A DNA stretch of 64,000 nt from Parcubacteria group bacterium GW2011_GWC1_36_108 (GTDB lineage Bacteria > Patescibacteriota > Minisyncoccia > Moranbacterales > GWC2-37-73), in contig LBRD01000006.1 of the NCBI GenBank assembly GCA_000991245.1, forward strand, positions 103,340 to 167,339. Direction: 5' to 3'. The notes beneath the pieces were generated by a model. That model was not told where the DNA came from, searched no databases, and was given only the letters and a program-made list of their open reading frames with translations. This document shows, piece after piece, positions 20,393 through 46,136 of the stretch. How positions within the stretch are numbered: position 1 is the first letter of the stretch; each line of letters starts with the position of its first letter. The position numbers were made by a program, and so were the translations under genes.

Positions 20393-20523
20393 GACTTACG
20401 CATTTTCTCAACTATTTCTTATTTGGCACGCTTTTGGATGAATACTCAATATCCAAAAGCTCAAAGAGTTGCTGTCGCCAACAATTGGCCAAAAAAGAAA
20501 TGTTTCGAAATGCGTAACTTCTG
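20393..20523. repeat. Dispersed repeat family REP-A copy A (short form) with ~12-bp TIRs ACTTACGCATTT / AAATGCGTAACT
   Basis: Core ttggcacgcttttggatgaat...atccaaaagctcaaagagt.gctgtcgccaacaattggccaaaaaagaaatgtttcgaaa shared with 25369-25560, 32210-32300 and 45950-46136 (inverted); contains hairpin gcttttggat/atccaaaagc. Confidence 0.55.
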
Positions 20524-20579
20524 TTTCAATTCATTATATATGAATTGCCAAATTCTTGCAAAACAATTATTTCTGTGTC

Positions 20580-20966
20580 CTAGTAGTTTGAAATTGTTGC
20601 GGCTAATTCTCTGAAATATGGGTAAAAAATGATTATTCCAACAATAACTGATGCCACCGCCGAAATCAAAACCACCGCTGCCATAAGATCTTTAATCAAT
20701 CTTGCATACGGATGTATTCTTGGTTTCAGAATGTCCACCACTCTTTCAAGCACAGTGTTTGTAAGTTCGGAAATCAAAACCCACATTATCATTAGAAGCA
20801 AAATAACGGCTTCCCAATTTTTAACTTTAAAAACAAAGATAAGACCGAGAACCAAAAATGCAAACAAAAGTTCAATACGAAAATTTTTTTCATGAACCGT
20901 GGCGTATTTAATCCCATCCAAAGCATGTCTCAAACTTCTCTTAAATCGTCTTAATTCTTCATTCAT
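20580..20966 (-). CDS. dgkA: Diacylglycerol/undecaprenol kinase (DgkA family)
   Basis: 128-aa three-TM protein; YATVHEKNFRIEL is close to the DgkA N-terminal amphipathic motif. Confidence 0.65.
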   Translation of the reverse strand: MNEELRRFKRSLRHALDGIKYATVHEKNFRIELLFAFLVLGLIFVFKVKNWEAVILLLMIMWVLISELTNTVLERVVDILKPRIHPYARLIKDLMAAVVLISAVASVIVGIIIFYPYFRELAATISNY

Positions 20967-21024
20967 ATAGATAGCTTCTTAGGCATTAGCTTCTTAGCTA
21001 ATTAGCTTAATTAATTTATAATAA

Positions 21025-21492
21025 TTATTTTTTATTTTTGCTGGTTACTAATTCATCGGCGACTTGTTTTTGGAGTGCGAACATTTTTTTTCCATGCTCA
21101 AAACCCAGCAAATGAAAAATTCCGTGCGCCGTGATATATGTGAGGGCATATTCCAATGACTGTCCATCTTCATTGGCATTACGCTCAATATATTTCGGAC
21201 ACAAAATCAATTCGCCAACAAATACTTCGTTTTCATTTTTTTTCTCACAAAGTTTTTCAGTTGATTCATATTCGCAAAAAGAAAGCACGTCTGTTGGTAA
21301 TTGCTTTTTGCGATATTGGCTGTTCAATTTTTGAATTTCATCTTCGCTAACCAAAGCAACACTAAGTTCCAAAATTTTATTTTCAAGACAGCTCAAATCA
21401 GCCAGCGCAATTGAACGCTGAAAAATACCCATAAATTTTTTCTTAGAAAATTTATAAGTTGTCTTATTATTTACTTCAAGAATAAATTTCAT
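21025..21492 (-). CDS. ybeY: Endoribonuclease YbeY (rRNA maturation factor)
   Basis: PTDVLSF and HGIFHLLGFEH, the H3xH5xH zinc-binding signature of YbeY. Confidence 0.85.
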   Translation of the reverse strand: MKFILEVNNKTTYKFSKKKFMGIFQRSIALADLSCLENKILELSVALVSEDEIQKLNSQYRKKQLPTDVLSFCEYESTEKLCEKKNENEVFVGELILCPKYIERNANEDGQSLEYALTYITAHGIFHLLGFEHGKKMFALQKQVADELVTSKNKK

Positions 21493-21626
21493 TTAAAGCG
21501 ATGGTAAGAAAATTGGAGCGAGGATACTTTTTATTTTTTCACTTAAAACAAGTCTCCTTGGTGTTATGTCAAAAGTTGCAATTGTTTTTCTGTGACAAAA
21601 ATAAAAACGTATCCGAGCGACAATCA

Positions 21627-22088
21627 TCAAACACTTTTTTCAAGTAATTGTTTTGCAATTTCGCGCACAACATTTCCATCAGCTTCTCCTTTCATTTTGC
21701 TCATAGCTTGACCCATAACCTTGCCCAAATCGCCAACACCTGCTGCTTTCGTTTGAGCAATCACCTCGCTAACTATAGCAGTAATGGCTTCTTCGGATAA
21801 TTGCGCGGGAAGGTATGGCATAATAATTTCGAGTTCAATTTTTTCTTTTTCAGCAAGATCAGGCCTGCCGCCATCTTCGAATTGACGAATGCTGTCTTGT
21901 CTTTGTTTGACGGCGCGCGAAATAACTTCCAAAACTTCTGCATCATCAAGACCAGTTTCTCGTTTTTTCTTTTCAATTTCCAAATTTTTAACAGCACTGT
22001 CCAAAAGGCGCAAAGTGTCACGACGAACACTGTCCCCGCTTTTCATCGCGTCTTTAAGATCTGAGATAATTTTTTCTTTAAGTGACAT
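21627..22088 (-). CDS. GatB/YqeY-domain protein
   Basis: MSLKEKIISDLKDAMKSGD...RRDTLRLL matches the YqeY family; start moved to MSLKEK because the upstream part of the ORF is translated from repeat R1. Confidence 0.8.
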   Translation of the reverse strand: MSLKEKIISDLKDAMKSGDSVRRDTLRLLDSAVKNLEIEKKKRETGLDDAEVLEVISRAVKQRQDSIRQFEDGGRPDLAEKEKIELEIIMPYLPAQLSEEAITAIVSEVIAQTKAAGVGDLGKVMGQAMSKMKGEADGNVVREIAKQLLEKSV

Positions 22089-22232
22089 AATACGAATACG
22101 CGAATTTATGCGAATGATACAAATACGCAAATGACGCGAAAGTTTAGTAAAACAATTCTACGAATGATGAAGGATCATTTGCGTAATTCGCATATTCGCG
22201 TATTAGCATACAATTTGCATCATTCGTATTAT
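22081..22232. repeat. Repeat family R1 copy 2 (long form), inverted relative to copy 1
   Basis: Reverse complement shares tatgctaatacgcgaatatgcgaat, ttgcgtcatttgcgtatttg and cattcgcataaattcgcgtattcgta with 296-396. Confidence 0.5.
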
Positions 22233-22238
22233 ATCTTG

Positions 22239-22487
22239 CTACATTTTGCGTTTGATGTTTTTCAAAGCTTCATCGTCAAATTTTCCAAGTTTTTTAAGCT
22301 TATCAATTTCTTTACGAATTTTAACTTTATATAATGCTTCGTCGCGTTTTTCTGTTTTGCTCTTCTCATCATTCTTAAATCTGGTTCGACGAGCACGAAC
22401 AAGCACGCCACTTTGCTGAATTTTACGAGAAAATCTTCGCATTAAGCTTTCTGTCGTTTCTTTATCCTTTTTTTGTACTCCAATCAT
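22239..22487 (-). CDS. rpsU: 30S ribosomal protein S21
   Basis: 82-aa basic protein with LMRRFSRK...GVLVRARRTRF, the S21 pattern. Confidence 0.8.
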   Translation of the reverse strand: MIGVQKKDKETTESLMRRFSRKIQQSGVLVRARRTRFKNDEKSKTEKRDEALYKVKIRKEIDKLKKLGKFDDEALKNIKRKM

Positions 22488-22671
22488 AGAAAAACCTCCT
22501 CTCTATAGTTTATGATTACTTATCTATAACCTATCATATTGTACTGAAAAACTCAAACAAGTCAACCACACGGCTTTCGCCGAAGTTATAAAGTTCATAA
22601 AGTTACAAGTTTATAAAGTAAATACAAAACCTTACAACCTTACGAACTTTAAAAACCTTACGAACCATTTT

Positions 22672-23043
22672 CTACTTCCAGTCAACCTCTAGCGGTCTAA
22701 TTTCTTCGTGGAGCGGGGCTCCGCCAATCAAGTGCAAGTGGATGTGATCCATTTCTTGACCACCGTGTTTGCCAGTGCGAAAAAGCAATTTATACCCATC
22801 TTCGGCAATGTTTAATTCCTTGGCGATGTCTCTGGCAGTAACAATCATTTTTCCCAACAATTCAACATCCGCGGGATCATTAACTTCGTTTATCGATGCA
22901 ATATGTTTTTTGGGAATAATCAAAATATGCACAGGTGCAAGTGGATGAATATCCTTGAAAGCAATAATCTCTTTGTTTTCAAAAACAATTTTCGCATCAA
23001 CCTTTTTTTCAACAATTTTACAAAAAATACAATCTGAATTCAT
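22672..23043 (-). CDS. HIT-family (histidine triad) hydrolase
   Basis: C-terminal QEMDHIHLHLIGG HxHxHxx motif. Start moved to the second in-frame ATG (MNSDCIF); the upstream MLYDICY is read from the start-box repeat. Confidence 0.8.
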   Translation of the reverse strand: MNSDCIFCKIVEKKVDAKIVFENKEIIAFKDIHPLAPVHILIIPKKHIASINEVNDPADVELLGKMIVTARDIAKELNIAEDGYKLLFRTGKHGGQEMDHIHLHLIGGAPLHEEIRPLEVDWK

Positions 23044-23125
23044 GTAGCATATATCATATAGCATGTAACAAAAATACGAGCCCGCATCCCTTGTTATATG
23101 TTATATGTTTTGTGTTATATGATTA
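23041..23125. repeat. Start-box element copy 1: ~85-bp imperfect inverted repeat CATGTAGCATATATCATATAGCATGTAACA-loop-TTGTTATATGTTATATG
   Basis: Related copies at 27428-27524, 35857-35945 and 57640-57700, each abutting a gene start; generates an MLY(D/A/V)(I/T)C(Y/F)M pseudo N-terminus in four ORF calls. Confidence 0.45.
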
Positions 23126-24553
23126 TTCTCCTTCGTGGGAAACAACCACATTGTTTTTTAATATTTTTCTTACCGCAATGATAAGGCGTTCGTGATTGAC
23201 AGTTTCTTGCGTGCCACTGACCATATCTTTCACAATCACTGTTTCATCGAGAGCTTCTTTTTGACCAATGATCAAAGTGATTTCAACACCAAGCCTGTCA
23301 GCCACGCGAAGTTGTGATTTTAATGATCCGCGTCCAAAACTTTCCGCAGTCAAAATTCCATTTTTTTGAAGTTCCGCAAAAACATTCAAACTTTTTTTCT
23401 TTGCCAAATCTCCAAGTTGTGCCAAAAATACTCGAGGCTTCGGTTCGATATACATTTTTGCATGCACGCGCTTCATTTCCTGCACGATTCTGTCCATACC
23501 TATTCCAAATCCAATAGCTGGTGTGTGTTCTCCACCCAATTCTTCAATCAAATGATCATATCGTCCTCCACCACCAAGTGAGTGTTTTTTGCCCTCTTCG
23601 TCGCCAGACCAAATTTCAAAAACTGTTTTAGTATAATAGCTAAGACCCCTAACCAAACGAGGATTAATCACATACGGCAAATCAAGCTCATCCAAATATT
23701 CCAACAAGCTCTTGAAATGAACGCGACATTCGGTGCAAAGTCTGTCTATTGATTGAGGCGCTGTTGTTGCAACTTGAATACATTTGTCTTCCTTGCAATC
23801 CAAAATTCTAAGCGGGTTTATTTCCAATCTTTTTTTGCAATTAAGACAAAGCTTCTGTTTTTTTGATTCAAAATATGCCACCAAAAGTTCTTGATATTCT
23901 TTGCGACATTTTGGACAACCGATCGAGTTAACTTGAAATTGAATATTTTTAATTCCCAAACTTGTAACCACGCGATGAGCCAATTGAATAAGCTGCGCGT
24001 CAAGAATAGGATCTTGTTCTCCAAAAGCATCGAAATTTGCTTGGAAATGTTCTCGATAGCGCCCTTCTTGCGGACGATCATAGCGATACACTGGACCAGT
24101 TGAAAAAAGTTTCACTGGTTTTGAAAGCACGTTCATTCCGTGTTGAATATACGCTCGTCCAAGGCCTGCAGTTAATTCTGGTCTAAGCGCAACTTTGTCT
24201 CCACCTTTGGTAGTAAACATATACATTTCCTTGTCCACGATGTCAGTTCCCTTTCCAATTGAACGAACAAATAAATTGGCATATTCCACAGCCGGCGTGT
24301 CAATACGCTGAAATCCATAGTCAATAGCCACACGCGCGAGCACGCGTCTCAGTTGATTCCAATAGGGCTGATCTCCTGGTAGAAGATCTCGCATACCCCT
24401 TGGTGGTTGCATTAAAATTTCCTCCTGAACCTGCATTTTTTCTTTCAAAACCTTCTTTGCTGTCGGAGCTTTCACTGCTTTTTTTGCGGTTGTTTTTTTA
24501 TCCATTTTTTTTGCAACGCTTTTCTTTATTATTTTATCTTTTACTTTTGCCAT
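23123..24553 (-). CDS. hisS: Histidine--tRNA ligase
   Basis: RGMRDLLPG and YRYDRPQEGRYREHFQ class-II aaRS / HisRS motifs. Start set at MAKVKDK; the first 12 codons of the track ORF are read from the AT-IR repeat. Confidence 0.9.
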   Translation of the reverse strand: MAKVKDKIIKKSVAKKMDKKTTAKKAVKAPTAKKVLKEKMQVQEEILMQPPRGMRDLLPGDQPYWNQLRRVLARVAIDYGFQRIDTPAVEYANLFVRSIGKGTDIVDKEMYMFTTKGGDKVALRPELTAGLGRAYIQHGMNVLSKPVKLFSTGPVYRYDRPQEGRYREHFQANFDAFGEQDPILDAQLIQLAHRVVTSLGIKNIQFQVNSIGCPKCRKEYQELLVAYFESKKQKLCLNCKKRLEINPLRILDCKEDKCIQVATTAPQSIDRLCTECRVHFKSLLEYLDELDLPYVINPRLVRGLSYYTKTVFEIWSGDEEGKKHSLGGGGRYDHLIEELGGEHTPAIGFGIGMDRIVQEMKRVHAKMYIEPKPRVFLAQLGDLAKKKSLNVFAELQKNGILTAESFGRGSLKSQLRVADRLGVEITLIIGQKEALDETVIVKDMVSGTQETVNHERLIIAVRKILKNNVVVSHEGE

Positions 24554-24665
24554 ACAATTACAAAAGTTCATAAAGTTTATAAAGTTCAAATTTTATAAAG
24601 CAAACGCATTCAAATACTTTATAAACCTTAAAAACTTTACGAACCTTTGACTTTCTAAACCATTT
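24549..24665. repeat. AT-rich inverted-repeat spacer, TATAAAGTT family
   Basis: ttcataaagtttataaagttcaaatt...ctttataaaccttaaaaactttacgaacc: tandem tataaagtt words and their complements around a central spacer; same architecture at 17470-17580, 22575-22672, 29655-29828 and 51782-51870. Confidence 0.45.
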
Positions 24666-24729
24666 AGAAAAACGATATATAAAATACAAACTAGAAACAG
24701 ATTATGCAATTAATATTTAAAACTTAAAA

Positions 24730-25362
24730 CTATAGTATTTCTGCTTTTGTGAATGGCCAGGCTCTGATCAGAACTTTTCCGATAACATCATTTTCAGGAA
24801 GAGCACCCCAAGCGCGAGAATCATGAGAAAACTGACGATTATCGCCCAATACAAAATATTCATTATCTTTGATTGTTGTTGTTACAGCTCCGTTAGTTAT
24901 TGATCCTGCGGACAAATAAGCGCGCTCATCAAGCACCAACCCTTCAGGATTTTCATCATTATAAATAGTAACCTTGCCTGCTTCAACTTTCACTTGCTCC
25001 CCTGGAAGTCCGATTACACGCTTAATGAAAAATTGCTTAGGATCACGAGGATAACGAAAAACCACAACATCTCCGCGATTCAATTCTTTGAAAGATCCTA
25101 TTGTAAAAAGATGCATCCCATCAACATTAGCGTTTGTTTCTTTATAGCCCAACTCATTAACTATCAAATAATCGCCGTCTTTAAAATTTGGCTCCATACT
25201 TGCACCTTGCACAAAAAAGGGCTGAAAAAGGAAAACTCTGATTGGAACAATAATGATAAGTGCCCAGAAAAAGACTTTTACCACTTCCCAAAGAAAACTT
25301 CCGACACCATAATACACTTCTTCTTCTGTTTCAATATTATTGTTTATTTTTTCCATATTCAT
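24730..25362 (-). CDS. lepB: Signal peptidase I
   Basis: GASMEPNFKDGD (catalytic Ser box) and KRVIGLPGE (Lys box). Start moved to MNMEK; the first codons of the track ORF come from REP-A copy B. Confidence 0.85.
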   Translation of the reverse strand: MNMEKINNNIETEEEVYYGVGSFLWEVVKVFFWALIIIVPIRVFLFQPFFVQGASMEPNFKDGDYLIVNELGYKETNANVDGMHLFTIGSFKELNRGDVVVFRYPRDPKQFFIKRVIGLPGEQVKVEAGKVTIYNDENPEGLVLDERAYLSAGSITNGAVTTTIKDNEYFVLGDNRQFSHDSRAWGALPENDVIGKVLIRAWPFTKAEIL

Positions 25363-25368
25363 AGGATT

Positions 25369-25560
25369 TACGCTTTTTCTCAACTATTTCTTATTTGGCA
25401 CGCTTTTGGATGAATGTTTACCCCGTCAAATCCAGCAAAGCTGGTGTTCACTGCTGTGAACAATTTGACGGGGCGAGTATCCAAAAGCTCAAAGAGTCGC
25501 TGTCGCCAACAATTGGCCAAAAAAGAAATGTTTCGAAAACAATGATACCACGCATCAGCC
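25369..25560. repeat. REP-A copy B (long form with 53-nt nested hairpin insert ccccgtcaaat...atttgacgggg)
   Basis: Same core as copy A plus the insertion ccccgtcaaatccagcaaagctggtgttcactgctgtgaacaatttgacgggg, a perfect 11-bp stem. Confidence 0.55.
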
Positions 25561-25565
25561 TCAGG

Positions 25566-25677
25566 CGCAAGCCCCGTTAGAAGCCTCTAAAGAGCTATTT
25601 TTTGACATTTTAGCACAATCAAATTAAACAATAAGTTCAATACTATAGAATTTGTGGAAAGCTTCTAACGGGGCAAG
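25566..25677. mobile_element. MITE-like element, family M1 copy 3 (diverged TIR gcaaGCCCCGTTAGAAgc ... gcTTCTAACGGGGCaagc)
   Basis: 18-bp TIRs; interior block agaagcctctaaagagctattttttgacattttagc is duplicated just outside the right TIR (25688-25725), where it forms the likely promoter of the LCP gene. Confidence 0.45.
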
Positions 25678-25728
25678 CCCACTAAATAGAAGCCTCTAAT
25701 ACGCTGTTTTTTGACATTTTAGCCTAAA

Positions 25729-27411: not shown

Positions 27412-27427
27412 ATATTTAACATTTATA

Positions 27428-27524
27428 AAAAAATAAAGTTTAAAAATCATATAACATATAACATATAACAAAAATGCAGACTCGCATCCTTGTTACATGA
27501 TATATGCTATATGCTACATGCTTC
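27428..27524. repeat. Start-box element copy 2 (upstream of pth)
   Basis: aatcatataacatataacatataaca-aaaatgcagactcgcatcc-ttgttacatgatatatgctatatgctacatg; loop similar to copy 1 (aaaatacgagcccgcatcc). Confidence 0.45.
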
Positions 27525-28052
27525 ATGAAACTATTAGTAGGCTTAGGCAATCCGGGCGATCAATATGAGGAAACTAGACACAACGCTGGGTTTATAGTTT
27601 TGGACGAAATTCAAAAAGAACTTTCTTTTCCAGAATTTCAATTGAACAAAAAATTTGAAGCTGAAATTTCAGAGGGAAATGTTGATGGAGAAAAAATAAT
27701 CTTGATCAAGCCGCAAACATTTATGAATCTTTCTGGAAAAAGTGTCGCTAGCATTATGACTTTTTATAAAATTCCTATTGAAGATTTAATTGTACTTCAC
27801 GATGATCTTGATATTAAGCTTGGAGAATTTAAAATTTCCATAGATTCTTCAGCCGCTGGGCACAATGGTGTGACTTCAATTTTTGAAACACTTGGCACAC
27901 AAAAAATCAAACGCGTTCGCATTGGAATTGAAGGCGCTGAAAAGAAACTTGAGCGGCAAATGTCTGGTAGTGATTTTGTTTTGCAAAAATTTTCCAAAGA
28001 AGAATTTGCAACCATCCAAAAACTTTCAACAGAAATTACAAAAATTCTATAA
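27525..28052 (+). CDS. pth: Peptidyl-tRNA hydrolase
   Basis: MKLLVGLGNPGDQYEETRHNAGF N-terminal signature; start moved past the repeat-derived MLYATCF. Confidence 0.9.
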   Translation: MKLLVGLGNPGDQYEETRHNAGFIVLDEIQKELSFPEFQLNKKFEAEISEGNVDGEKIILIKPQTFMNLSGKSVASIMTFYKIPIEDLIVLHDDLDIKLGEFKISIDSSAAGHNGVTSIFETLGTQKIKRVRIGIEGAEKKLERQMSGSDFVLQKFSKEEFATIQKLSTEITKIL

Positions 28053-28588: not shown

Positions 28589-29668
28589 ATGAAACACTTA
28601 AACGCTTTGAATACAATTTACGGACTTGGGAATCAAAAAATGAAATTGTTGATGAGTTTTTTTGAAAACGCAGAGCAAGTTTGGCAAGCGTCTCGCGAGG
28701 AACTTTTGAAATCTGGTATCGGAGAAAAAATTGCACAAAAAATTGTCGAGCAAAGACCTCTTATTGATATTGAAAAAGAATGGGAAAAATTGGAAAAGGA
28801 AAACATTCTCGCCATTGGACTTGATGACCCTCACTACCCCGCCCTGCTCAAGCAAATTCCAGACAATCCTTATCTTATATATATGAAGGGAGATTTGACC
28901 TGCCTTGACTTTCCGTTGGTTGCTATTGTTGGGTCGCGAAAATTGACAGAATATGGCAACGATGTTGCCCGTGGATTTGCCAGAGACTTGGCCGACAGTG
29001 GCATTTGTGTTGTTAGTGGTCTTGCCTTTGGAATCGATGCTATGGCCCACTCTGGAGCGCTTGAGGTCAAAGGAAGAACGATTGCCGTGCTCGGAAACAG
29101 CTTGGACGCCGAAAGCATCTCGCCGCGCACCAACTTTCAACTTTCCGAAGACATTATTAAAGGTGGCGGACTTTTGATTAGCGAATTTCCAGTTAAAACA
29201 TCTGCTACTGTTGGAACATTCCCTATGCGTAATCGCATTATGGCTGGAATGAGTCTTGGCACATTGGTTGTTGAAGCCGCAGAAAAAAGCGGTAGTCTTA
29301 TTACTGCCAACTTGGCCTTGGATTATAATCGCGATGTTTTTGCCGTGCCGGGATCAATCTTTTCGCCCCAGTCAACAGGAACACATCTACTCATTAAAGC
29401 TGGAGCTAAACTTGCAACTTGTGTGGGCGACATTTTAACCGAACTGCGAATCGAAAGCGGCAAAAAAATACCTCTTGAAGCAAAAGTTTTTGACCTGACA
29501 GATGATGAAAAAATAGTGCACACAGTTCTTTCCCACGAAAGCCTCCACATTGACAGAATATCAAAACTGACTAAACTTGAGACATCGACCATTTCCTCAA
29601 TACTCGCAATGATGGAAATAAAAGGCGCAATCAAGAACGTCGGAGGACAGAATTATATAAAGTTATAA
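28589..29668 (+). CDS. dprA: DNA processing protein DprA (Smf)
   Basis: VAIVGSRKLTEYG...CVVSGLAFGIDAMAH Rossmann-like DprA core. Confidence 0.9.
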   Translation: MKHLNALNTIYGLGNQKMKLLMSFFENAEQVWQASREELLKSGIGEKIAQKIVEQRPLIDIEKEWEKLEKENILAIGLDDPHYPALLKQIPDNPYLIYMKGDLTCLDFPLVAIVGSRKLTEYGNDVARGFARDLADSGICVVSGLAFGIDAMAHSGALEVKGRTIAVLGNSLDAESISPRTNFQLSEDIIKGGGLLISEFPVKTSATVGTFPMRNRIMAGMSLGTLVVEAAEKSGSLITANLALDYNRDVFAVPGSIFSPQSTGTHLLIKAGAKLATCVGDILTELRIESGKKIPLEAKVFDLTDDEKIVHTVLSHESLHIDRISKLTKLETSTISSILAMMEIKGAIKNVGGQNYIKL

Positions 29669-29828
29669 AGTTATAAAGTTCATAAAGTTTATAAAGTTAT
29701 AAAGCAAGAATCGAAAATATTTCATCATTATAATCATAAAGTTCGTAAAGTTCATCAAGTTTATAAAGTAAAAATGCATTCTACTTTATAAACTTTAAAA
29801 ACCTTATAAACTTTAAAAACTTATTAAA
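29655..29828. repeat. AT-rich inverted-repeat spacer, TATAAAGTT family (largest copy)
   Basis: ataaagttataaagttataaagttcataaagtttataaagttataaagc ... ctttataaactttaaaaaccttataaactttaaaaac: six or more direct words, then complementary words. Confidence 0.45.
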
Positions 29829-32132
29829 ATGAAGCTAATAATCGTTGAGTCTCCTACTAAAGCAAAGACTATAACAAAATTTTTGGGTAAAGGTTTCACA
29901 GTGAAATCTTCTTTTGGTCATGTGCGTGATTTGCCAAAAAGTGGGATGGGGGTGGATATTGAAAAAGATTTCACACCAAGCTATGAAATTCCAGACAAAG
30001 CGCGCATCAAGGTGGCTGAACTTTTGAAACTCTCCAAGAAAGCTGATGAAGTTATTCTAGCTTCCGATGAAGACCGCGAAGGAGAAGCGATTGCTTGGCA
30101 CTTGGTTGAAGCGTTAGGATTAGATAAGAAAAACAAAAAACCATATTCTCGTATTGTTTTTCATGAAATTACAAAAAATGCAATTTTGAAAGCATTAGAA
30201 ACTCCGAGAGAGATAGATATAAATTTGGTTGACGCTCAGCAGGCACGGCGCGTGCTTGATCGATTGGTTGGATATGAACTTTCTCCATTTTTGTGGAAAA
30301 AAATTCGTCGCGGACTTTCCGCTGGACGCGTGCAATCAGTAGCGCTGCGCTTTATTGTTGAGCGCGAACGAGAAATTCAAGCTTTTGTTGCTGAAGAATT
30401 TTGGACAATTTCTGCCAAACTTCACCCTGTTAAATCCGGCGGGGTCGCCGGTGCGAAGCAATTTAACAGGGTGAAAAAAGAAAAAACTAACGATGAATTT
30501 GAAGCCAATTTACTGGAGCAAAATGGAGAAAAAATTGAACAAACCATCACGTTAAAACTTTTTACCGGAGATTATAAAACCAAAAAAAGTGTCATTGCCA
30601 ACAAGAAAACAGCCGAGCAGATTACCAGTGAACTCAAAGATGCGAAATATCAAGTTTTGTCAGTTGAGAAAAAAGAAACGATGCGAAGTCCTTCCGCCCC
30701 TTTTACTACTTCGACTTTGCAACAAGCTGCCATCAGCAGTTTTGGTTTTTCAGCCAAGCAAACAATGATGACGGCGCAAAAACTTTATGAAGAAGGTTAC
30801 ATCACATATATGCGAACTGACAGTATGAATCTGTCATTGGAATCTTTAATGAGCGCAAAAAAAATAATTGAAAAAGAATTTGGTAAAAATTATTCATTGG
30901 AAAGTCCTCGCTATTTCAAAACAAAATCAAAAAGCGCGCAAGAAGCTCACGAAGCTATCCGTCCAACTGATCCGGAAAAAACTCCTGATGAGCTGATGCC
31001 GCTTTTGGAAACCAATCAATACAAATTATACCGCCTCATTTGGAACCGAATGATTGCTTGCCAAATGCAAAACGCAAAATTAAATTCTGTTAAAGCTGAC
31101 ATCGAAGCTGCCGGAAAGAAAAATAAATTCTTGCTGCGAGCATCTGGCTCAACCGTTGTTTTTGATGGTTTTTTGAAAGTATACGAAAACAGAGCGGCGC
31201 AAGCTGAATCATTTTTGCCAGAACTAAAAAAGGGAGATCCGCTTTCTGCTTTGGAGGTTTTGCCATTGCAAAAATTTACCTCTGCCCCACCACGATATAA
31301 TGAAGCAACATTGGTTAAGGTTTTGGAAGAACACGGAATTGGCCGACCTTCAACTTATGCACCAACCATTTCAACTATTATTGACCGCAAATATGTTGAT
31401 AAAAATGAAGATAAGAGATTGTTTCCTCTGGAAATTGGTTTTCCAGTTAATGACCTTTTGGTTGAGCATTTTCCAGAAATTGTCGGCATCGATTTTACTG
31501 CAACTATTGAAAAAAGTTTTGATGAAATTGCCGAAGGAAACAAGCCTTGGGTTCCGGTAATTCGAGATTTTTATGGACCATTTCACAAATTGCTTGAAGA
31601 AAAAACTGACAGTGTCAAAAAAGAAGATTTGGTGGAAAAACTTGATCGACCCTGCCCTACTTGCGGAGCAGAATTAGTTATGAAATTTGGACGCTTTGGA
31701 AAATTTATCGCTTGCAGCAATTATCCAACTTGTAAATATACTGAAAAAACCGACAGTGAAAAAAAGGAGGATGAAGAAAATTCCGGGGTTATTTGTGACA
31801 AATGTGGAGCACCAATGGTTGTCAAACGCGGAAGATTCGGTCCATTTTTGGGTTGCTCAAAATATCCAGAATGCAAAAACATTATGAATATTGAGAAAAA
31901 AACCGGAGTTAAATGTCCCAAGTGTCAAAAGGGAGATATTATTGAACGCAAATCCAAAAAAGGCAAGATGTTTTATGGTTGCAACAAATATCCAGCTTGT
32001 GACTTCGTGATGTGGAACAAGCCTACGGGAGAAATGTGTCCATCTTGTGGACAACCACTTGCTTTTGCTGCCAAAGGAAAAACCAAATGCTCAAACAAGG
32101 AGTGTGGAAAAACATTTGACGCAAAAGAATAG
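29829..32132 (+). CDS. topA: DNA topoisomerase I
   Basis: MKLIIVESPTKAKTI TOPRIM N-terminus; C-terminal CxxC...CxxC zinc-ribbon repeats; 767 aa. Confidence 0.95.
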   Translation: MKLIIVESPTKAKTITKFLGKGFTVKSSFGHVRDLPKSGMGVDIEKDFTPSYEIPDKARIKVAELLKLSKKADEVILASDEDREGEAIAWHLVEALGLDKKNKKPYSRIVFHEITKNAILKALETPREIDINLVDAQQARRVLDRLVGYELSPFLWKKIRRGLSAGRVQSVALRFIVEREREIQAFVAEEFWTISAKLHPVKSGGVAGAKQFNRVKKEKTNDEFEANLLEQNGEKIEQTITLKLFTGDYKTKKSVIANKKTAEQITSELKDAKYQVLSVEKKETMRSPSAPFTTSTLQQAAISSFGFSAKQTMMTAQKLYEEGYITYMRTDSMNLSLESLMSAKKIIEKEFGKNYSLESPRYFKTKSKSAQEAHEAIRPTDPEKTPDELMPLLETNQYKLYRLIWNRMIACQMQNAKLNSVKADIEAAGKKNKFLLRASGSTVVFDGFLKVYENRAAQAESFLPELKKGDPLSALEVLPLQKFTSAPPRYNEATLVKVLEEHGIGRPSTYAPTISTIIDRKYVDKNEDKRLFPLEIGFPVNDLLVEHFPEIVGIDFTATIEKSFDEIAEGNKPWVPVIRDFYGPFHKLLEEKTDSVKKEDLVEKLDRPCPTCGAELVMKFGRFGKFIACSNYPTCKYTEKTDSEKKEDEENSGVICDKCGAPMVVKRGRFGPFLGCSKYPECKNIMNIEKKTGVKCPKCQKGDIIERKSKKGKMFYGCNKYPACDFVMWNKPTGEMCPSCGQPLAFAAKGKTKCSNKECGKTFDAKE

Positions 32133-32209
32133 AGAATCGTCTATCTCAAAAATGGACTACGCGCAATGTATGGTTTTAAATGCTGAATGCAACGCTTAAT
32201 TTTTTGTTT

Positions 32210-32300
32210 GCCTATTTCCTTTTTGGCACGCTTTTGGATGAATGCTCAATATCCAAAAGCTCAAAGAGTCGCTGTCGCCAACAATTGGCCAAAAAGAAAA
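32210..32300. repeat. REP-A copy C (core only, no TIRs)
   Basis: tttttggcacgcttttggatgaatgctcaatatccaaaagctcaaagagtcgctgtcgccaacaattggccaaaaagaaa. Confidence 0.5.
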
Positions 32301-32443
32301 CAGACAAACAAAAAATTCAAAGCTTGTTTCTTAAGAACCTATACGATATCAAAAAAAAACAGAGTCTTCTCTGTTTTTTTTGCTTTTATAGCACATAATT
32401 GATATACTAAAAATATTAAAATTCTTGGAGTGTATTACACGTT

Positions 32444-35856: not shown

Positions 35857-35945
35857 CGGTCATGTAGCATATATCATATAACATGTAGCATTCCCTCACT
35901 CAGAGTCAACCGCCTTTTTGTTATATGTTATATGTTGTATGTTAT
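35857..35945. repeat. Start-box element copy 3 (4 nt upstream of the parA start codon)
   Basis: tcatgtagcatatatcatataacatgtagca-loop-ttgttatatgttatatgttgtatgttatatg. Confidence 0.45.
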
Positions 35946-36054
35946 ATGAAAGATTTGCCTGTCTTCAGTTATTGTATCACATTGACAATTCAATTTCAAT
36001 CATTTATCATTAGAGAGTACTTTTGATGAAATTAGGCCTTGTTTTAGGCAAAAA

Positions 36055-36138
36055 GCCCAAATGGTGGAACTGGTATACACGCACGACTCAAAATCGTGTG
36101 GCGCAAGCCATGAGAGTTCGAATCTCTCTTTGGGCACC
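36055..36138 (+). tRNA. tRNA-Leu (anticodon CAA), class II with 13-nt variable arm
   Basis: Hand fold: acceptor GCCCAAA/TTTGGGC (7 bp), D region TGGTGGAACTGGTATACAC (close to E. coli tRNA-Leu), anticodon stem CACGA/TCGTG with loop CTCAAAA (U33, CAA, A37), variable arm TGGCGCAAGCCAT, T arm GAGAG-TTCGAAT-CTCTC, discriminator A; CCA not encoded. Confidence 0.85.
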
Positions 36139-36220
36139 CCGTAAAATTTGCTGCGCTCATCACGGGGCACAGGAAATATATTAAATCATCTTTAACAACA
36201 AAAAAACAAGGAGGTACACT

Positions 36221-37560: not shown

Positions 37561-37714
37561 TTTTACTTGTCCCGTTAAATTTTGCGTAGCAAATTATTTA
37601 ACTGGGATTTTTTTAATTATCAATAACGAAATTATACCACACTTTTTTTGGAAAAGAAAAAAGGCGTCATCGATAAGCTATCGATTTCGCCTTTTATTAT
37701 ATCTCATCTTTATA

Positions 37715-38444: not shown

Positions 38445-40004
38445 TTATAAGTCAGTTCCGGAATATGATAGGTTCAGTGATTTATTGATAAGAGGAAAAT
38501 CTGGCACGATGTTGCCTGGCCCCATAATACCGAAAAGTGCCCAATTGCAAAATGATGGATCACGTGGAAAACATCGCTCAATAACACCATTTTTAATTTC
38601 AAGTGCGCACAAAATTTCTCCACGCCAAGATTCCACGGCGCTAATTGCATATCCATCCTTAATTTCAACAGGAACAGAAACATCCCCCGTTTCCATTTCA
38701 GCGATAATTTTTTCAATAAAATCAATTGACACTTTCATTTCTTCAATACGCACCAAATAACGTGAGTGCACATCTCCCTTTTTTTTCAAAGAAACAGTTG
38801 TTGGATATTTTTGATAAGCAGCATAGGGATGATCACGCCGCACGTCGCGATCAAGTCCTGACCCGCGAGCAGCAATTCCAAGCGCGCCAAAGGCTCTTGC
38901 CGCTTCCTGTCCAAGCACACCGGTTGTTTGCATACGATCAAGAAAACCATCGCTGGCAAGCGCCAACATAACAATTTTATTCATTTCAAAATATGCATCT
39001 TTGGAGATTTCCAGAATTTTTTTCAGTTGCAAATCATTTAAATCCTTTGTAACACCGCCGATAGTGATGAATTCTCGCCAAAAACGATTACCAAAAATAT
39101 CATCAGAAAGGCGCATCATTCTTTCCTTAATCCGAAAACCATTGGCCGCAATAAAGCTATACCCTGTTCCCATTCCGCCAATATTGGCCAGGTCGTGAAT
39201 ATGCATCGTCAATCTTTCGAGTTCCAAAACAAGTGTGCGCAACATTTTTGCGCGATCAGTTACATTGCAATTTGAAATAGTTTCGATTGCTTGAACATAT
39301 GCAAGACAATGAGAAGCTGCCATATCGCCAGAAATTCCTTCGACGTATGGCAAAGCATCTTTGGGATTTTTTCCTTCCATCAATTTTTCAACTCCCTTGT
39401 GTGTGAAAAACAATTTTCCTTCCAAAGTTAAAATCCTTTCTCCCGCAACATTAAAGCGAAAATGCCCCGGTTCGATAATTCCTGCGTGAATGGGCCCCAC
39501 TGGAATCTCAAAAATTCCTTCACCCTCAATATGATGCATTGGATATGGAACATTAGCCTTTTCAAGTTTAGTATTAACAGCAAAATCTTTTCGAAGTGGA
39601 TGCGTCCCTTCTGGAATATTTTCATGATTTACTAATCTTCTTGGATCTGGATGACCAACAGCAATGACACCAAACATATCTTGCATATATCGCTCATACC
39701 AATGCGCAGCCATAATTGTTCTCGTGATTGAGGGATAGCTTGGATCATTTTCCGGCAAACTTGCTGACAACCTTAACCATTGATGATTCGCATCATCTCC
39801 GAAAATCACATTCACACCAAAAGTCTGATTTTCTTTGCGGTTATCCGTGCCATACAAAGAAGACAAAAATAATTTGTGTTCATCAACAAGCGATGTTGAA
39901 ACACGCGCCAAATCTTCTCGCGAAACTGTTGCAAAAACAGTATTGTTTTTAATCTCCACAATTTTAACTTCTGATATTTTTTTTAAAATTTCTTGAATGT
40001 TCAT
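38445..40004 (-). CDS. Fused NuoC-NuoD-like subunit (Ehr-type large subunit): NiFe-hydrogenase-large-subunit fold lacking the Ni-binding cysteines
   Basis: NuoC-like N-domain (NVIFGDDANHQWLRL) and NuoD/HycE-like domain (IPVGPIHAGIIEPGHFRF). Where hydrogenases have RxCGxC the protein has GISGDMAASH; the C-terminal DPCxxC is replaced by DPSFCNW. Start chosen at MNIQEILKK; the track ORF extends to 40091. Confidence 0.8.
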   Translation of the reverse strand: MNIQEILKKISEVKIVEIKNNTVFATVSREDLARVSTSLVDEHKLFLSSLYGTDNRKENQTFGVNVIFGDDANHQWLRLSASLPENDPSYPSITRTIMAAHWYERYMQDMFGVIAVGHPDPRRLVNHENIPEGTHPLRKDFAVNTKLEKANVPYPMHHIEGEGIFEIPVGPIHAGIIEPGHFRFNVAGERILTLEGKLFFTHKGVEKLMEGKNPKDALPYVEGISGDMAASHCLAYVQAIETISNCNVTDRAKMLRTLVLELERLTMHIHDLANIGGMGTGYSFIAANGFRIKERMMRLSDDIFGNRFWREFITIGGVTKDLNDLQLKKILEISKDAYFEMNKIVMLALASDGFLDRMQTTGVLGQEAARAFGALGIAARGSGLDRDVRRDHPYAAYQKYPTTVSLKKKGDVHSRYLVRIEEMKVSIDFIEKIIAEMETGDVSVPVEIKDGYAISAVESWRGEILCALEIKNGVIERCFPRDPSFCNWALFGIMGPGNIVPDFPLINKSLNLSYSGTDL

Positions 40005-40141
40005 AATAATTTTATAAAAATAAATTTCTAATTCCCAATTTCCAATTCCTAATAAAAATTTTAATGCCCAATTCCCAAATTTTGAATTCAAGCATTTGAA
40101 ATTTTGTTGGAAATTTGATATTAGAAATTAGTAATTTTGCA

Positions 40142-41620
40142 CTACTGTGCAATGTATATTATATCTTTAGCGATCAAATCAATAAATTTAAGTCCGTCGG
40201 CTGATGAGAAAAAGAAGGTTAGTCCAACAACCAAAATCAATTGCACAATCATTACCCAGTGCGTAAGATTCCATTTTTCTCTATTCCCTAAAGACGTGAT
40301 GTCTTCCCCTTCAGAAAAAAACATTCCGATTGTTGAGCGAAGCATTGCGTATGCAATCACACTTAAGGCTGCAAAAATAAGCAATGACAAAAATGGATGC
40401 AGTGCAAAAGCACTAGTAAACATTGTATATTCACTTACAAACAAAATTGACGGAGGAAGCGCAATGATCGACAAAATACCAAACAAAAACAATATTGCTG
40501 TGAAAGGGGCTTTTTTCATCAAGCCTTTTATTTTTTCCGTCTGGGTTGTTTTGTAATTTATCAATATTTCGCCCGCTCCGAAGAAAAGCATTGACTTGGT
40601 AAGTGTATGTCCAATCATATGAATCACAGCTGCTAATGCTCCAATTGGAGATAATGCCAGGGCAAAAGTAATGATACCCATATGTTCAACGCTTGAATAC
40701 GCCAACATTCTTTTGTAATTACTTTGCACTAACATCATAAAAGCAGGAACTATGATTGAAATAAAACCAAAAAACAAAAATAGATGCCCTGTCCATTCGC
40801 TGCTTCCTAGTGCTAAATCAGTAATAAATCTAAAACGAATAATTCCATACAGTGCAATATTAAGCAAGATTCCAGAAAATAGACCGGAAATTGGCGAAGG
40901 CGCATTACTGTGTGCATCAGCCAACCAAATATGCATCGGCACCAAACCGAGCTTTGCTCCAAAACCAATAAAAATAAAAACAAAAGCCCATCTGGCAATA
41001 TCCGAAGAAAGCAAATGCGCATTTTGAGCAAGATTTGTTAAAGTAAAAAGATCGCTGCCACTTATGCCAGCCAAAGATGACCCATAACCAAGAAGCAAAA
41101 TTCCAAGCAACCCCAAACTTATCCCTGTTGAACAAATAATAATATATTTCCAAGCGGCTTCGGCTGATGTTTTTTTGCGATAAAGTCCAACCAAAAATGT
41201 TGAGGATAGCGTCGTGCCTTCAAGCGTCATCCAAAGCAACAGCGCATTATTAGCCATAACTGTAATCATCATACAAAGAGCAAAGATATGAAACAATCCG
41301 AAATAAAGCTTAAGATCACTAAGTGTTAGAATCTTTTCTTCATATTCATGCCCAATATAACGAAAACTCACAACAGCTGCGGACACATATACAAAAGCAA
41401 CCAGCGTTGCCATCAAAGCTGAAAAATTATCCACAAGCCATACGCTATCAGACCAAGCAGGTGATGACTGAAGAAGAACCGGCAAGGACATCGCGAAAAC
41501 TGAAGCTCCCGCAGCAATTGCAAGCAAAAGACTACTTTGACGAATATGTTTTTCTTTTTTAAGAAAAATCACGCAAGCTGTTGCAACAAGAATAATGATG
41601 ATTGTAATAATTGGTGTCAT
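40142..41620 (-). CDS. Complex-I NuoN/NuoM (MrpD) antiporter-like membrane subunit
   Basis: 492-aa polytopic protein with the conserved antiporter-like core; position in the nuo/hyf-like gene string. Confidence 0.7.
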   Translation of the reverse strand: MTPIITIIIILVATACVIFLKKEKHIRQSSLLLAIAAGASVFAMSLPVLLQSSPAWSDSVWLVDNFSALMATLVAFVYVSAAVVSFRYIGHEYEEKILTLSDLKLYFGLFHIFALCMMITVMANNALLLWMTLEGTTLSSTFLVGLYRKKTSAEAAWKYIIICSTGISLGLLGILLLGYGSSLAGISGSDLFTLTNLAQNAHLLSSDIARWAFVFIFIGFGAKLGLVPMHIWLADAHSNAPSPISGLFSGILLNIALYGIIRFRFITDLALGSSEWTGHLFLFFGFISIIVPAFMMLVQSNYKRMLAYSSVEHMGIITFALALSPIGALAAVIHMIGHTLTKSMLFFGAGEILINYKTTQTEKIKGLMKKAPFTAILFLFGILSIIALPPSILFVSEYTMFTSAFALHPFLSLLIFAALSVIAYAMLRSTIGMFFSEGEDITSLGNREKWNLTHWVMIVQLILVVGLTFFFSSADGLKFIDLIAKDIIYIAQ

Positions 41621-41769
41621 AAAGTTGTATTAAAAAATTCTAAAGGCTAAATTTTAAAGTCTAATTCAATTCTAAATTCTAAAGTTTAAATTAAAATGCA
41701 AGTCCTTTTATACTTTTCACTTTAGATTTGATTTAGTATTTAGTACTTAGACTTTAGCCTTTAATGATC

Positions 41770-43380: not shown

Positions 43381-45386
43381 AAAACTATAATTAATGTGAC
43401 AATTAATGTTCCCAAAACAAAAAGCAAATAATATTGAATACGCCCACCCTGAATCACGCGAGCACGCTCAGCCAAAAAATTCAAAATACCTGCGATCGGT
43501 TGATATAATTTATCTTTCCAAACAGATTTTAATGACATAGAAAAAGTATAGTTGCGAATCCAAGGATTAGTCTCAACAACTGCTACCGATTTTAAAACCT
43601 TATCTCTTCCCAATAAATGCAGAAAGAAAAACCTAATTGGGCCAGAAAAAGCCGTGGCGGAATATTGCATTGTTGCATCAATCGATTGCCCACAATCCCA
43701 CGTTTTGTATTTCCTCTCCGAAACCTTGCTGCCAAAAAAATTATACACTGCGTACGTCAGTGCCAAGAAAATTACAAACAGTGAAAATATCATTGATGAA
43801 GAAAGATGACTTGTTATTGCACTGATTGATTGATCAGAAGGCATTGTTGCCAAAATACCACCATTACCGTTTAACCATCCAATAATAGGTTTAGCAAAAA
43901 TACCCAAAACCAACACTCCTGATCCAAGTATCATCACAGGAATACTAAGCATATAATCAGTTTTTTCAGCTCTTTCTTCAATATGATCTGTACGAGGAAG
44001 TCCAAGCATTGAGATACCAAAAATTTTAATCATAGCAAATATTGCCAAACCACTGACAAGTCCCATAAGCGCGATACTGCCCAATATTACCAATATTGCA
44101 ACAGAATCAAGTAGCGGGCTACGTAATAAGCTGATTGCATTTTGAATCAATCCCCACTCTCCGTAAAATGTTCCGAATGGAGGAAGTGGAACTGCAGATA
44201 AAATTGCAATTAAAAATGCAAATGAAAAGAACGGCATAATTTTAGCCAAACCTCCCATCGCCTCAAGACTTTTAGAATGAAAACGACTGATTGCAATTCC
44301 ACTACTCAAAAAAAGTGCTGTTTTAAAAAGTGCATGATTTATTGCATGAAAAACAGCAAACACCACTATAATATTGGAAATTATCACAATACTGTCAGCA
44401 GAGCTTTGGGATAAAAGATAAATTGAAATTCCAAGCATCGTAAAAATAATTCCCATATTTTCAATACTACTATAAGCAAACGCACGTTTCATATCCCTTT
44501 CAATAACCGCATATAACACACCAACGATTGCAGAAAGAAGACCAAGCGCGATAACAACAAGTCCTGCCCAAGCAGGCAAATTCGTCATAGCAAAAACAAT
44601 TTTAATAAAACCATAAATTGCGACTTTAAGCATAAGACCGGACATCAAAGCTGAAATATTGCTTGGAGCTTGCGGATGCGCTTCTGGCAGCCAAACATGA
44701 AATGGAACAAGCCCAGCCTTTGAACCAAAACCAAACAAAAATAGCATGAAAGCAAGTGCGGCTAATGCTGGTGAAAGGGTTGATGATAAAAAAGCAATAT
44801 CAGAAAAATCAAAAAATAAATTTCCGCCACTCAAAATCAAAAAGCCTCCCAAAATTGCTGAGGCTCCAAGATGCGTCATAATAAAATACAAGAAAGCTGC
44901 GCGAACAGACTGAGAAGTTTTGTCAGCCATAACAAGAAAAAAAGATGTGATACTCATAACCTCCCAAAAAAACAAAAACGCAAAAGCGTTATTGGCAAAC
45001 AGTACTCCTTGCATTCCAAAAACAAAAACTACTGTTAAAAATTGTGTGAGCGCAGGATTATAAGTTTTTTCATAAAGCTCCAAATATCTCATGCTATATA
45101 TTCCCACCAAGGCTGACACAAAACTAATAACAATAAAGAAAATAGCGCTTAAGAGATTTACTGTCGGCGCAAAATTAAAAAGCCAATTCCATTGTCCCAA
45201 AATAATTTCCTTTGGGGCAAAATTAAACAAATATAAAATTCCAGCGATAAAACCCAGAGTATTTACTAAGACAAAAAGTTGAACGGATTTTTTCCATTGA
45301 CCGCCAATAAGCGCAAACAGAGCGGCAAAAAATAGGCCAAAAAAATAAACAAAAAAACCGAAAGCTATTAAATCTATCGTTATCAT
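43377..45386 (-). CDS. NuoL/MrpA/HyfB-like antiporter-type membrane subunit
   Basis: 669-aa polytopic protein of the NuoL/HyfB family. Confidence 0.75.
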   Translation of the reverse strand: MITIDLIAFGFFVYFFGLFFAALFALIGGQWKKSVQLFVLVNTLGFIAGILYLFNFAPKEIILGQWNWLFNFAPTVNLLSAIFFIVISFVSALVGIYSMRYLELYEKTYNPALTQFLTVVFVFGMQGVLFANNAFAFLFFWEVMSITSFFLVMADKTSQSVRAAFLYFIMTHLGASAILGGFLILSGGNLFFDFSDIAFLSSTLSPALAALAFMLFLFGFGSKAGLVPFHVWLPEAHPQAPSNISALMSGLMLKVAIYGFIKIVFAMTNLPAWAGLVVIALGLLSAIVGVLYAVIERDMKRAFAYSSIENMGIIFTMLGISIYLLSQSSADSIVIISNIIVVFAVFHAINHALFKTALFLSSGIAISRFHSKSLEAMGGLAKIMPFFSFAFLIAILSAVPLPPFGTFYGEWGLIQNAISLLRSPLLDSVAILVILGSIALMGLVSGLAIFAMIKIFGISMLGLPRTDHIEERAEKTDYMLSIPVMILGSGVLVLGIFAKPIIGWLNGNGGILATMPSDQSISAITSHLSSSMIFSLFVIFLALTYAVYNFFGSKVSERKYKTWDCGQSIDATMQYSATAFSGPIRFFFLHLLGRDKVLKSVAVVETNPWIRNYTFSMSLKSVWKDKLYQPIAGILNFLAERARVIQGGRIQYYLLFVLGTLIVTLIIVL

Positions 45387-45395
45387 ACAATTATA

Positions 45396-45935
45396 TTAAA
45401 AATTTTTCTGATTAAGAGATTGAAGAACTCCCCGCAAAATTTCAATAGGGCGTGGAGGATTTCCTGGAATACGGATATGCACAGGAATGACTTTTTCAAC
45501 TCCCCCAACCACAGCATATGAATCCTTCCAAATACCACCATCTATTGCTCCGTCGCCAAGTGCTACTACAATGCAAGGACTCGGTGCGGCTTCATAAGTT
45601 GTTTTAAGTGCATTTTCAAGATTGCGCGTAACCGGACCTGAAACAAAAAGCATATCGGCGTGCCTTGGAGATGCCACAAAAGTGAGTCCAAAACGATCAA
45701 TGTCATAATAAGCATTATTCAGGGCTGTAAACTCAATCTCTTCAGCGTTAGTAGAACCAGCATCAACCGCGCGGATGCGCAAAGAACGACCCCCGTATAA
45801 TCTTTTTATAGTAGCTTTTAGTTCCTCACCGACTTTTTCAAATTGAGCATCAACAGGAAAATCCCTGATTGTTTGTTCATTTTCTGTGACTTTTGGCCCA
45901 AATAGTAAGATTTTGAGTAATTGAAAAAATTTCAT
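45396..45935 (-). CDS. NuoB/hydrogenase-small-subunit-like protein lacking all Fe-S cluster cysteine ligands (Ehr-type small subunit)
   Basis: Alignable to NuoB: ADMLFVSGPVTRNLENAL...IVVALGDGAIDGG...VIPVHIRIPGNPP versus NuoB D.MIVAGT.T.KM...ISMGSCANGGG...PVDVYVPGCPP. Every Cys of the N2 cluster motifs (CCxxE, GxC, C-P) is substituted: AGSTNAEE, GDG, GNPP. Confidence 0.8.
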   Translation of the reverse strand: MKFFQLLKILLFGPKVTENEQTIRDFPVDAQFEKVGEELKATIKRLYGGRSLRIRAVDAGSTNAEEIEFTALNNAYYDIDRFGLTFVASPRHADMLFVSGPVTRNLENALKTTYEAAPSPCIVVALGDGAIDGGIWKDSYAVVGGVEKVIPVHIRIPGNPPRPIEILRGVLQSLNQKNF

Positions 45936-45949
45936 AAAAAACGTTATTA

Positions 45950-46136
45950 TCAGAAGTTACGCGTTTCGAAACATTTCTTTTTTGGCCAATTGTTGGCGAC
46001 AGCGACTCTTTGAGCTTTTGGATACTCGCCCCGTCAAATTGTTCACAGTAGTGAACACCAGCTTTGCTGGATTTGACGGGGTAAACATTCATCCAAAAGC
46101 GTGCCAAAAAAGAAATAGTTGAGAAAATGCGTAAGT
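45950..46136. repeat. REP-A copy D (long form, inverted orientation) with TIRs
   Basis: Reverse complement of the copy-B architecture, including the nested hairpin ccccgtcaaattgttcacagtagtgaacaccagctttgctggatttgacgggg; ends agttacgcgttt ... aaatgcgtaagt. Confidence 0.55.

Follow-up and report, generated by a model that had tools for sequence, protein, structure and literature searches.

The stretch of DNA analysed here, hereafter the window, comprises 64,000 nucleotides (64 kb) of contig LBRD01000006.1 (positions 103,340 to 167,339) of Parcubacteria group bacterium GW2011_GWC1_36_108, and it harbours four copies, A to D, of a small interspersed repeat termed REP-A. The copies are located between dgkA and ftsA (A), between lepB and a divergent LytR_CpsA_Psr gene (B), between topA and rel (C), and between atpC and a NuoB-like gene (D). 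Scored by a covariance model of the ~95-nt core they reach 89-109 bits, as compared to 16.8 bits for the next match, and the window hence contains exactly four REP-A copies, far beyond chance, at the places given in the initial annotation, with coordinates refined here (Table 1). The whole ~95-nt core can be aligned across all four, in agreement with the shared core of ~100 bp proposed at first, and the unit measures 134-190 bp, with 177 nt common to copies B and D at 98% identity. Copy C, initially delimited at 32210-32300, is neither short nor truncated but a complete 177-nt variant, the outer arms of which are different, longer and fully paired. The only open reading frame (ORF), starting MARFWMN, loses its register where copies differ in length by 56 nt. 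As the frame is not kept, REP-A is without coding capacity; a protein-coding reading is ruled out, and the ORF is spurious, as already suspected.

Table 1. Copies of REP-A in the window, their nested repeats and their flanking 5-mers.
Feature	Position	Strand	Description
Copy A	20390-20523	+	Complete type-1 unit, 134 nt; 109 bits
Copy B	25362-25538	+	Type-1 unit without 3' terminal arm, with nested mini-hairpin; 89 bits
Copy C	32168-32344	+	Complete variant subfamily, 177-nt palindrome; core 32209-32303; 100 bits
Copy D	45951-46140	-	Complete type-1 unit with nested mini-hairpin; 91 bits
Nested mini-hairpin of copy B	25421-25473	+	Inside apical loop; CCCCGTCAAAT...ATTTGACGGGG
Nested mini-hairpin of copy D	46029-46081	-	Inside apical loop
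Left target-site duplication, copy A	20385-20389	.	CTTCA
Right target-site duplication, copy A	20524-20528	.	TTTCA
5-mer flanking copy D	45946-45950		ATTAT
5-mer flanking copy D	46141-46145		AATAT

The Rel protein encoded in the window is 100% identical to a protein of Candidatus Moranbacteria bacterium GW2011_GWC2_37_73, and homologues of its FtsA are found in Moranbacteria and Parcubacteria. An exact 20-mer from the 3' half of the repeat retrieved five copies in two Moranbacteria metagenome-assembled genomes (MAGs), plus one chance match in an archaeon, while an independent exact 21-mer from the 5' half retrieved 68 metagenome loci. Taken together, the exact-word scans yielded more than 70 further REP-A copies. 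Each of them comes from a Moranbacteria genome or from a groundwater metagenome, and the repeat is thus not confined to the window. Long contigs carry eight copies in 484 kb, seven in 232 kb and four in 173 kb, or approximately one per 30-60 kb, which implies tens of copies per ~1-Mb genome; the hundreds per genome that had been extrapolated from the window are too many by about an order of magnitude. Carriage by phages was considered and rejected, as the covariance model did not recognise the element at any of the four places where a 17-mer matched a viral contig. Rfam 15 at gathering thresholds returned a tRNA-Leu as its sole match in the window, permissive Rfam scans of copies A, D and one diverged member gave chance-level matches only (E at least 0.4), and a full-text literature search retrieved no account of such interspersed repeats in the Candidate Phyla Radiation (CPR), Parcubacteria or Moranbacteria. 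The REP-A family is previously undescribed, of a familiar kind of element and unusual mainly by a conserved three-way-junction core.

Copies A, B and D belong to type 1, with imperfect terminal inverted repeats of 16 bp (TAGGACTTACGCATTT and AAATGCGTAACTTCTG, matching at 13 of 16 positions). The TAGGACTTACGCATTT/AAATGCGTAACTTCTG termini are present in ~30 other copies as well as in A and D, for which the inverted repeats seen at the outset are borne out, and the 3' terminal arm is missing from copy B. In copy L040 the core is inverted relative to the arms, demonstrating that the arms do recombine. To detect a duplication of the target, the 5 nt outside TAGGAC... were compared with the 5 nt outside ...TTCTG in 33 independent type-1 copies. 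Of the 165 positions compared, 114 agree between the flanking 5-mers, whereas permutation gave 71.5 on average and none of 20,000 permutations reached the observed number. At least four of the five positions agree in 21 of the 33 copies, the match is perfect in seven, and the signal is restricted to a single register. The duplicated 5-mers vary by copy (AAATA, AAAAT, ATATT, AATTT, ATTAT and others), and consequently represent target-site duplications rather than element sequence. The analysis proposed along with the initial annotation thus recovers a 5-bp duplication in type 1. The dinucleotide TA was also considered as the target duplication and discarded, since it belongs to the 5' end of the element and no TA is present at a fixed 3' position.

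Filled and empty sites were identified at several loci. The copy in L024 corresponds to an empty site with an uninterrupted AAATA in L044, the flanks being otherwise 91-96% identical. Similarly, three relatives (FtsA 87-91% identical) have no copy in the dgkA-ftsA and lepB-lytR spacers and four have none in the topA-rel spacer, while copies exist between two nuo-like genes in L061 and upstream of yqeY in L076 and L077, at places where the window has none. All orthologous sites examined are polymorphic. The idea that copy C has long been conserved ahead of rel was rejected, as four relatives are without the copy and the look-alikes in L042 and L056 lie at other loci. Copies at unrelated loci in other genomes share 94-98.5% identity with copy A, even though the proteins of these genomes are only 76-84% identical to those of the window, and the orthologous copy pair of L022 and L045 has diverged to the same extent as its flanks (89.6%). 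Copy identity in excess of genome identity, in conjunction with a pair that tracks its flanks, indicates recent spread from very similar source copies and not site-by-site purifying selection. Copies are also lost: in a 98%-identical relative (L078), only a 30-nt arm of copy A is left, between a perfect TGAAG/TGAAG, and a remnant of the L035 copy is kept in L042 and L006.

Both strands of each copy fold into a long hairpin with interruptions; the z-scores are -6 to -9 using RNA and -4 to -7 using DNA parameters. The predicted fold consists of an outer stem P1 formed by the terminal inverted repeats, an internal loop, a stem P2 and a three-way junction with P3 and P4. P2 is a U/A-rich stem (UUUCUUnUUUGGC paired with GCCAAAAAAGAAA), P3 is formed by GCUUUUGGAU and AUCCAAAAGC and capped by an apical loop that varies. 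The stem of P4 is 5-8 bp long and its loop reads CUGUCGC, where CUNUCG is conserved across the family. Several subfamilies coexist, even on a single contig. Type 1, type 2 (GCAATTGCTCGAC... and ...GTCTCACATTGC) and the type of copy C have wholly different outer arms, which are nevertheless paired in each of them. The inner helices of diverged members are likewise compensated, in P3 (UUUUUGACC/GGUCAAAAA, CUUGGCC/GGCCAA, GCAAUC/GAUUGC and CAGCAGUU/AACUGCU) as well as in P4 (GUCG/CGAC, GUUG/CAAC, GCCG/CGGC, GCUG/CAGC and GAAAC/GUUUC). The nucleotides of the junction are kept throughout the subfamilies, namely GGCACGC, the (G)CUC that follows P3, CUNUCG in the P4 loop and GGCC.

The pairing is supported in two alignments. 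When fitted to the model, 90.1% of the cells are paired as compared to at most 56% with slid partners, and both sides have changed in 19 of the 33 pairs, a number not attained in any of 500 shuffles. In a structure-blind MAFFT alignment 83% are paired, against at most 52% in the slid controls, and RNAalifold independently recovers P3, P2 and the inner part of P1. This shows that the folded single strand either matters or is regenerated. The compensatory changes sought in the covariance check suggested at the outset are therefore present, but covariation alone does not show RNA function. Quasi-palindromes may gain paired changes through template switching, without selection at the RNA level; considering this, the presence of copies in both orientations and the balance of G-U versus C-A counts between the strands (104 vs 106), the maintained pairing does not show a function as RNA. 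In 48 of 59 copies, which are not independent of each other, the fold energy is more favourable for the antisense strand, by 4.5 kcal/mol.

The same helices bear on two further explanations. REP-A could represent a double-stranded protein-binding module and serve, for example, as an operator, as a nucleoid or recombination site or as a sigma-54-type promoter, and invariant blocks such as TTGGCACGC and TTGGCCAA are in line with this. However, the helix sequences differ within one genome with the pairing kept, as expected of a folded single strand and not of a duplex binding site, and the copies are dispensable between close relatives, making such a module extremely improbable. For the sigma-54 version, TTGGCACG resembles a -24 box and one diverged subfamily fits GGCACG-N4-TTGC at nine of the ten specified positions (by reading sequences), but in the main subfamily the -12 GC is absent or misplaced relative to the required spacing, and another subfamily is without it altogether, and this candidate was therefore rejected.

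Alternatively, REP-A may be a REP/REPIN-type or IS200/IS605-derived palindrome that a Y1 (HUH) transposase mobilises in the form of folded single-stranded DNA. Y1 transposases recognise hairpins, and REP-A forms a long hairpin on both strands also under DNA parameters, with helices that conserve structure over sequence and with conserved unpaired motifs. REP/REPIN elements (RAYT) and REP-A are, moreover, both hairpin-forming intergenic repeats with co-varying arms that form within-genome families in both orientations. To our knowledge, elements of Y1 transposases have neither target-site duplications nor terminal inverted repeats; the Y1-dependent REPINs differ from REP-A in exactly these respects, as the 5-bp duplication and the inverted termini are present here. 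No GTAG-type REP motif and no flanked transposase gene were detected in the loci examined either, and movement by a Y1 enzyme appears very unlikely. We also considered integron attC sites. These form arrays after promoterless cassettes beside an integrase and have paired R''/R' boxes (RYYYAAC/GTTRRRY), whereas the REP-A copies are situated 5-14 kb apart among housekeeping genes in mixed orientation, and their CTCAAC and GTTTCG face each other in the internal loop without being complementary; attC was hence rejected.

All four copies in the window are intergenic, in agreement with the initial annotation, and REP-A itself is found only between genes. Copy A is antisense to both dgkA and ftsA, copy B is antisense to lepB, and copy D is in sense orientation. 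Promoter-like elements that are conserved in relatives directly precede two of the copies, TTGCAA-17-TATAAT of ftsA (20561-20533, minus strand) upstream of copy A and TTGCGC-17-TATCAT of lepB upstream of copy B, the latter abutting the lepB start codon ATG (25362-25360, minus strand). Being downstream of sigma-70-like promoter sites, copies A and B are both placed inside 5' leaders. Copy C, on the other hand, follows the topA stop codon and precedes a terminator-like hairpin (32352-32381) that separates it from rel, assigning it to the topA 3' region, so that the position just upstream of a gene start, originally ascribed to all four copies, does not apply to C and rel. The NuoB-like gene starts (45935) 15 nt downstream of the end of copy D. 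Across the family, copies are often found 5-30 nt from a start codon, and their neighbours include ftsA, lepB, topA/rel, nuoB-like, copZ/copA-like, thioredoxin, leuS and nrdG genes. Relative to the neighbouring genes, 29 copies are in sense (+,+), 15 are antisense (-,-), seven are in divergent and two in convergent surroundings. Two regulatory candidates were discarded: an intrinsic terminator, as no U-tract follows the stem in either orientation and both 3' arms are A-rich, and a cis-regulatory leader or riboswitch, as the orientation is not fixed and the gene set is not coherent.

With this arrangement, REP-A may be viewed as primarily a functional structured RNA, i.e. a multicopy cis-acting leader/trailer module or a small RNA, with a junction that binds a protein or ligand and with a copy number that stems from a regulon and not from selfish spread. 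The junction nucleotides that are conserved across subfamilies despite fully changed, compensated helices agree with such a role, as do the location of the copies in transcribed spacers, often close to a start codon, and an orientation bias of ~70:30 toward the strand of the downstream gene. In contrast, ~30% of the copies are antisense to both neighbours, including A and B beside the essential ftsA and lepB, and the neighbouring genes are without a common theme. Every examined orthologous site is empty in some close relative, most of copy A is deleted in one of them, and the target-site duplications show that the copies arrived by transposition. Furthermore, no Rfam family matches, and no strand is favoured, as judged from the G-U and C-A counts and from antisense folds that are slightly better. 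A primary function as RNA is consequently an unlikely explanation of the family.

Based on the terminal inverted repeats, the target-site duplications, the filled and empty sites and the identity of copies across genomes, we propose that REP-A is a family of non-autonomous DNA transposons, miniature inverted-repeat transposable elements (MITEs), resident in Candidatus Moranbacteria, and we assign this interpretation a probability of about 75%. It was among the options raised in the initial annotation, and the 5-bp duplications and the spread of copies beyond the region both favour it. Several observations nevertheless weigh against it. The eight type-2 copies display no register with a duplication signal, which is accordingly shown for type 1 only. 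No transposase gene or autonomous element with REP-A ends was found in the ~0.75 Mb of locus DNA examined, and the termini have no further occurrence outside REP-A copies in this DNA. The orientation bias hints at selection after insertion. Finally, the subfamilies agree in their interior junction but not in their outer arms, in contrast to ordinary MITEs, where the termini are most conserved, and a plain transposase-binding model does not explain the conservation of the junction. As the junction is kept across changed helices and the orientation is biased, the assembly of GGCACGC, P3, CUC, the P4 CUNUCG loop and GGCC could conceivably be a functional module, either a recognition site for a mobilisation enzyme that would read the fold and not the termini, or an RNA domain, for instance a signal for protein binding or processing, spread by transposition, although we regard this as doubtful. 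If the latter were true, REP-A would constitute a mobile structured-RNA module in the housekeeping leaders and trailers of a regulator-poor CPR genome.

For REP-A as a MITE, we propose the following life cycle. The 134-bp type-1 unit would insert into AT-rich spacers, creating the 5-bp target-site duplication, and is presumably moved by a transposase that acts in trans through a cut-and-paste reaction. Either strand is predicted to fold into a long P1/P2 stem that ends in the three-way junction with P3 and P4. Type 1 is likely young, while copy C, type 2 and the more diverged forms may be older or parallel subfamilies. Copies appear to land in 5' leaders, in 3' trailers and in spacers between co-directional genes, in either orientation, and for this reason they are probably co-transcribed as very stable hairpins, possibly with an effect on mRNA stability or processing. 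Later, the copies would decay through the loss of one arm, and they may serve as landing sites for other mini-hairpin repeats.

Known repeat systems provide a frame for these findings. The ERIC/IRU elements (Enterobacteriaceae and Vibrio, with ERIC-like MITEs in Yersinia) are, like REP-A, imperfect palindromes of ~127-134 bp in transcribed intergenic DNA that are present in either orientation and in tens to hundreds of copies. In both families, extra segments at fixed internal sites give rise to longer variants, copies from different species resemble each other far more closely than their flanking DNA does, and co-transcription would yield a long RNA hairpin. They differ in the target duplication, reported as TA in Yersinia and being 5 bp in REP-A, and ERIC is not known to have an equivalent of the three-way-junction interior and of the subfamilies with compensated helix changes. 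Since the host of REP-A belongs to the CPR/Patescibacteria and not to the enterobacteria or vibrios, the relationship is one of analogy, in which ERIC is the closest analogue in size, palindromy, location, insert variants and cross-species similarity. The Correia elements (CREE/NEMIS) of Neisseria and RUP/BOX of Streptococcus pneumoniae share with REP-A a small non-coding unit, terminal inverted repeats, target duplications and a gene-adjacent location, and they are co-transcribed as hairpins that can be processed and can supply parts of outward promoters. Their termini and their target (TA for Correia) are, however, unrelated to those of REP-A, and in REP-A the core rather than the termini is most conserved. 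An IHF-type site and RNase III processing are further features of Correia. The Rickettsia palindromic elements (RPEs) resemble REP-A as palindromic repeats of a reduced genome, and also its companion mini-hairpin family, described below, by in-frame insertion in a protein-coding gene (topA in our case). RPEs are without sequence relationship to REP-A, and 5-bp target duplications are not known for them.

The genomes of CPR/Patescibacteria are streamlined, at ~1 Mb, and are usually portrayed as containing little mobile DNA and few regulators. As a MITE, REP-A would represent recent, lineage-wide transposition into the untranslated regions of essential genes such as ftsA, lepB, topA and those of respiratory complexes in such a setting. 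The copies provide ready markers for strain typing and for the detection of assembly breaks in Moranbacteria MAGs, and they account for a class of small ORFs that are annotated spuriously. The compensated three-way junction, in turn, represents a tractable case for distinguishing a fold kept by selection, at the level of mobilisation or of RNA, from one maintained through template-switch mutation.

Copies B and D contain an extra 53-nt segment, as first noted. It was described as a perfect hairpin, but has an 11-bp perfect stem around two small hairpins. The segment is a member of a second repeat family, the mini-hairpins, with ends (T)CACCCyGTyAAAT and ATTTrACrGGGTrAA and a variable interior. 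Rather than being an optional module of REP-A, as originally thought, it thus belongs to a separate family that is nested inside REP-A, with standalone members in the window at 37571-37605 and 30426-30470. The latter (TTCACCCTGTTAAAT...ATTTAACAGGGTGAA) is located in-frame inside the topA ORF (29829-32132), where it contributes 17 residues (HPVKSGGVAGAKQFNRV); a 90%-identical TopA (L087) lacks them, whereas the 98% relative L010 has them. Additional standalone mini-hairpins are found at L010:7106, L016:3353, L030:5634, L037:9833 and 12842, L045:8332 and L063:5734, that of L063 in the same spacer that holds a REP-A copy in L068. We note that a mini-hairpin-like terminus (ATTTTACGGGG, one mismatch) is present at 36137-36147, abutting the 3' end of the tRNA-Leu (CAA) at 36055-36138, the only match in the window by Rfam or ARAGORN.

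Other small repeats are nested in REP-A too, at four internal sites overall. In copies elsewhere, three further hairpin inserts were observed at defined places, one of 28 nt in the P3 loop, one of 20 nt after P4 and one of ~65 nt in the 5' strand of P2. The ~65-nt insert is an imperfect hairpin (GCGAAGTCGAGCGAAATGAAAG...CTTTCAATTTCCGAGCGAGCGAC) that occupies the P2 5' strand in L031, L044 and L067, and a related insert is located in the P3 loop in L076 (~8045-8115). Its presence at two internal positions suggests a third small mobile hairpin family. In L048 (10986-11249), a diverged REP-A is nested at the P4 place of another copy, the outer 3' half of which resumes afterwards.

The spacers of the window hold further hairpins. 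Long intergenic hairpins at 29657-29841, 51786-51889, 24545-24665, 22620-22665 and 17487-17521 have arms of short tandem units, ATAAAGTT/AACTTTAT, that are 80-90% complementary across loci. Hairpins of CATATAA/TTATATG units with a GC-rich centre are situated between genes at 23040-23122, 27440-27521, 35860-35949, 11021-11051 and 57640-57670. A third group, with AATTTCC/AATTAGA-like or CTAAAGT units, is found at 40000-40143, 46213-46341, 46822-46958, 48377-48508, 50155-50270, 52279-52407 and 41640-41760, and in relatives hairpins of this group fill spacers that hold REP-A elsewhere. The spacer content of the Moranbacteria lineage undergoes rapid turnover. Lastly, a promoter-like TTGACA followed by the palindrome ATACCCTAGGGGGGTAT is located between adjacent REP-A copies in L036 (7100-7200); this arrangement resembles CsoR-type copper operators. 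Nearby REP-A copies (L022, L045) precede genes with GMxCxxC metal-binding motifs.

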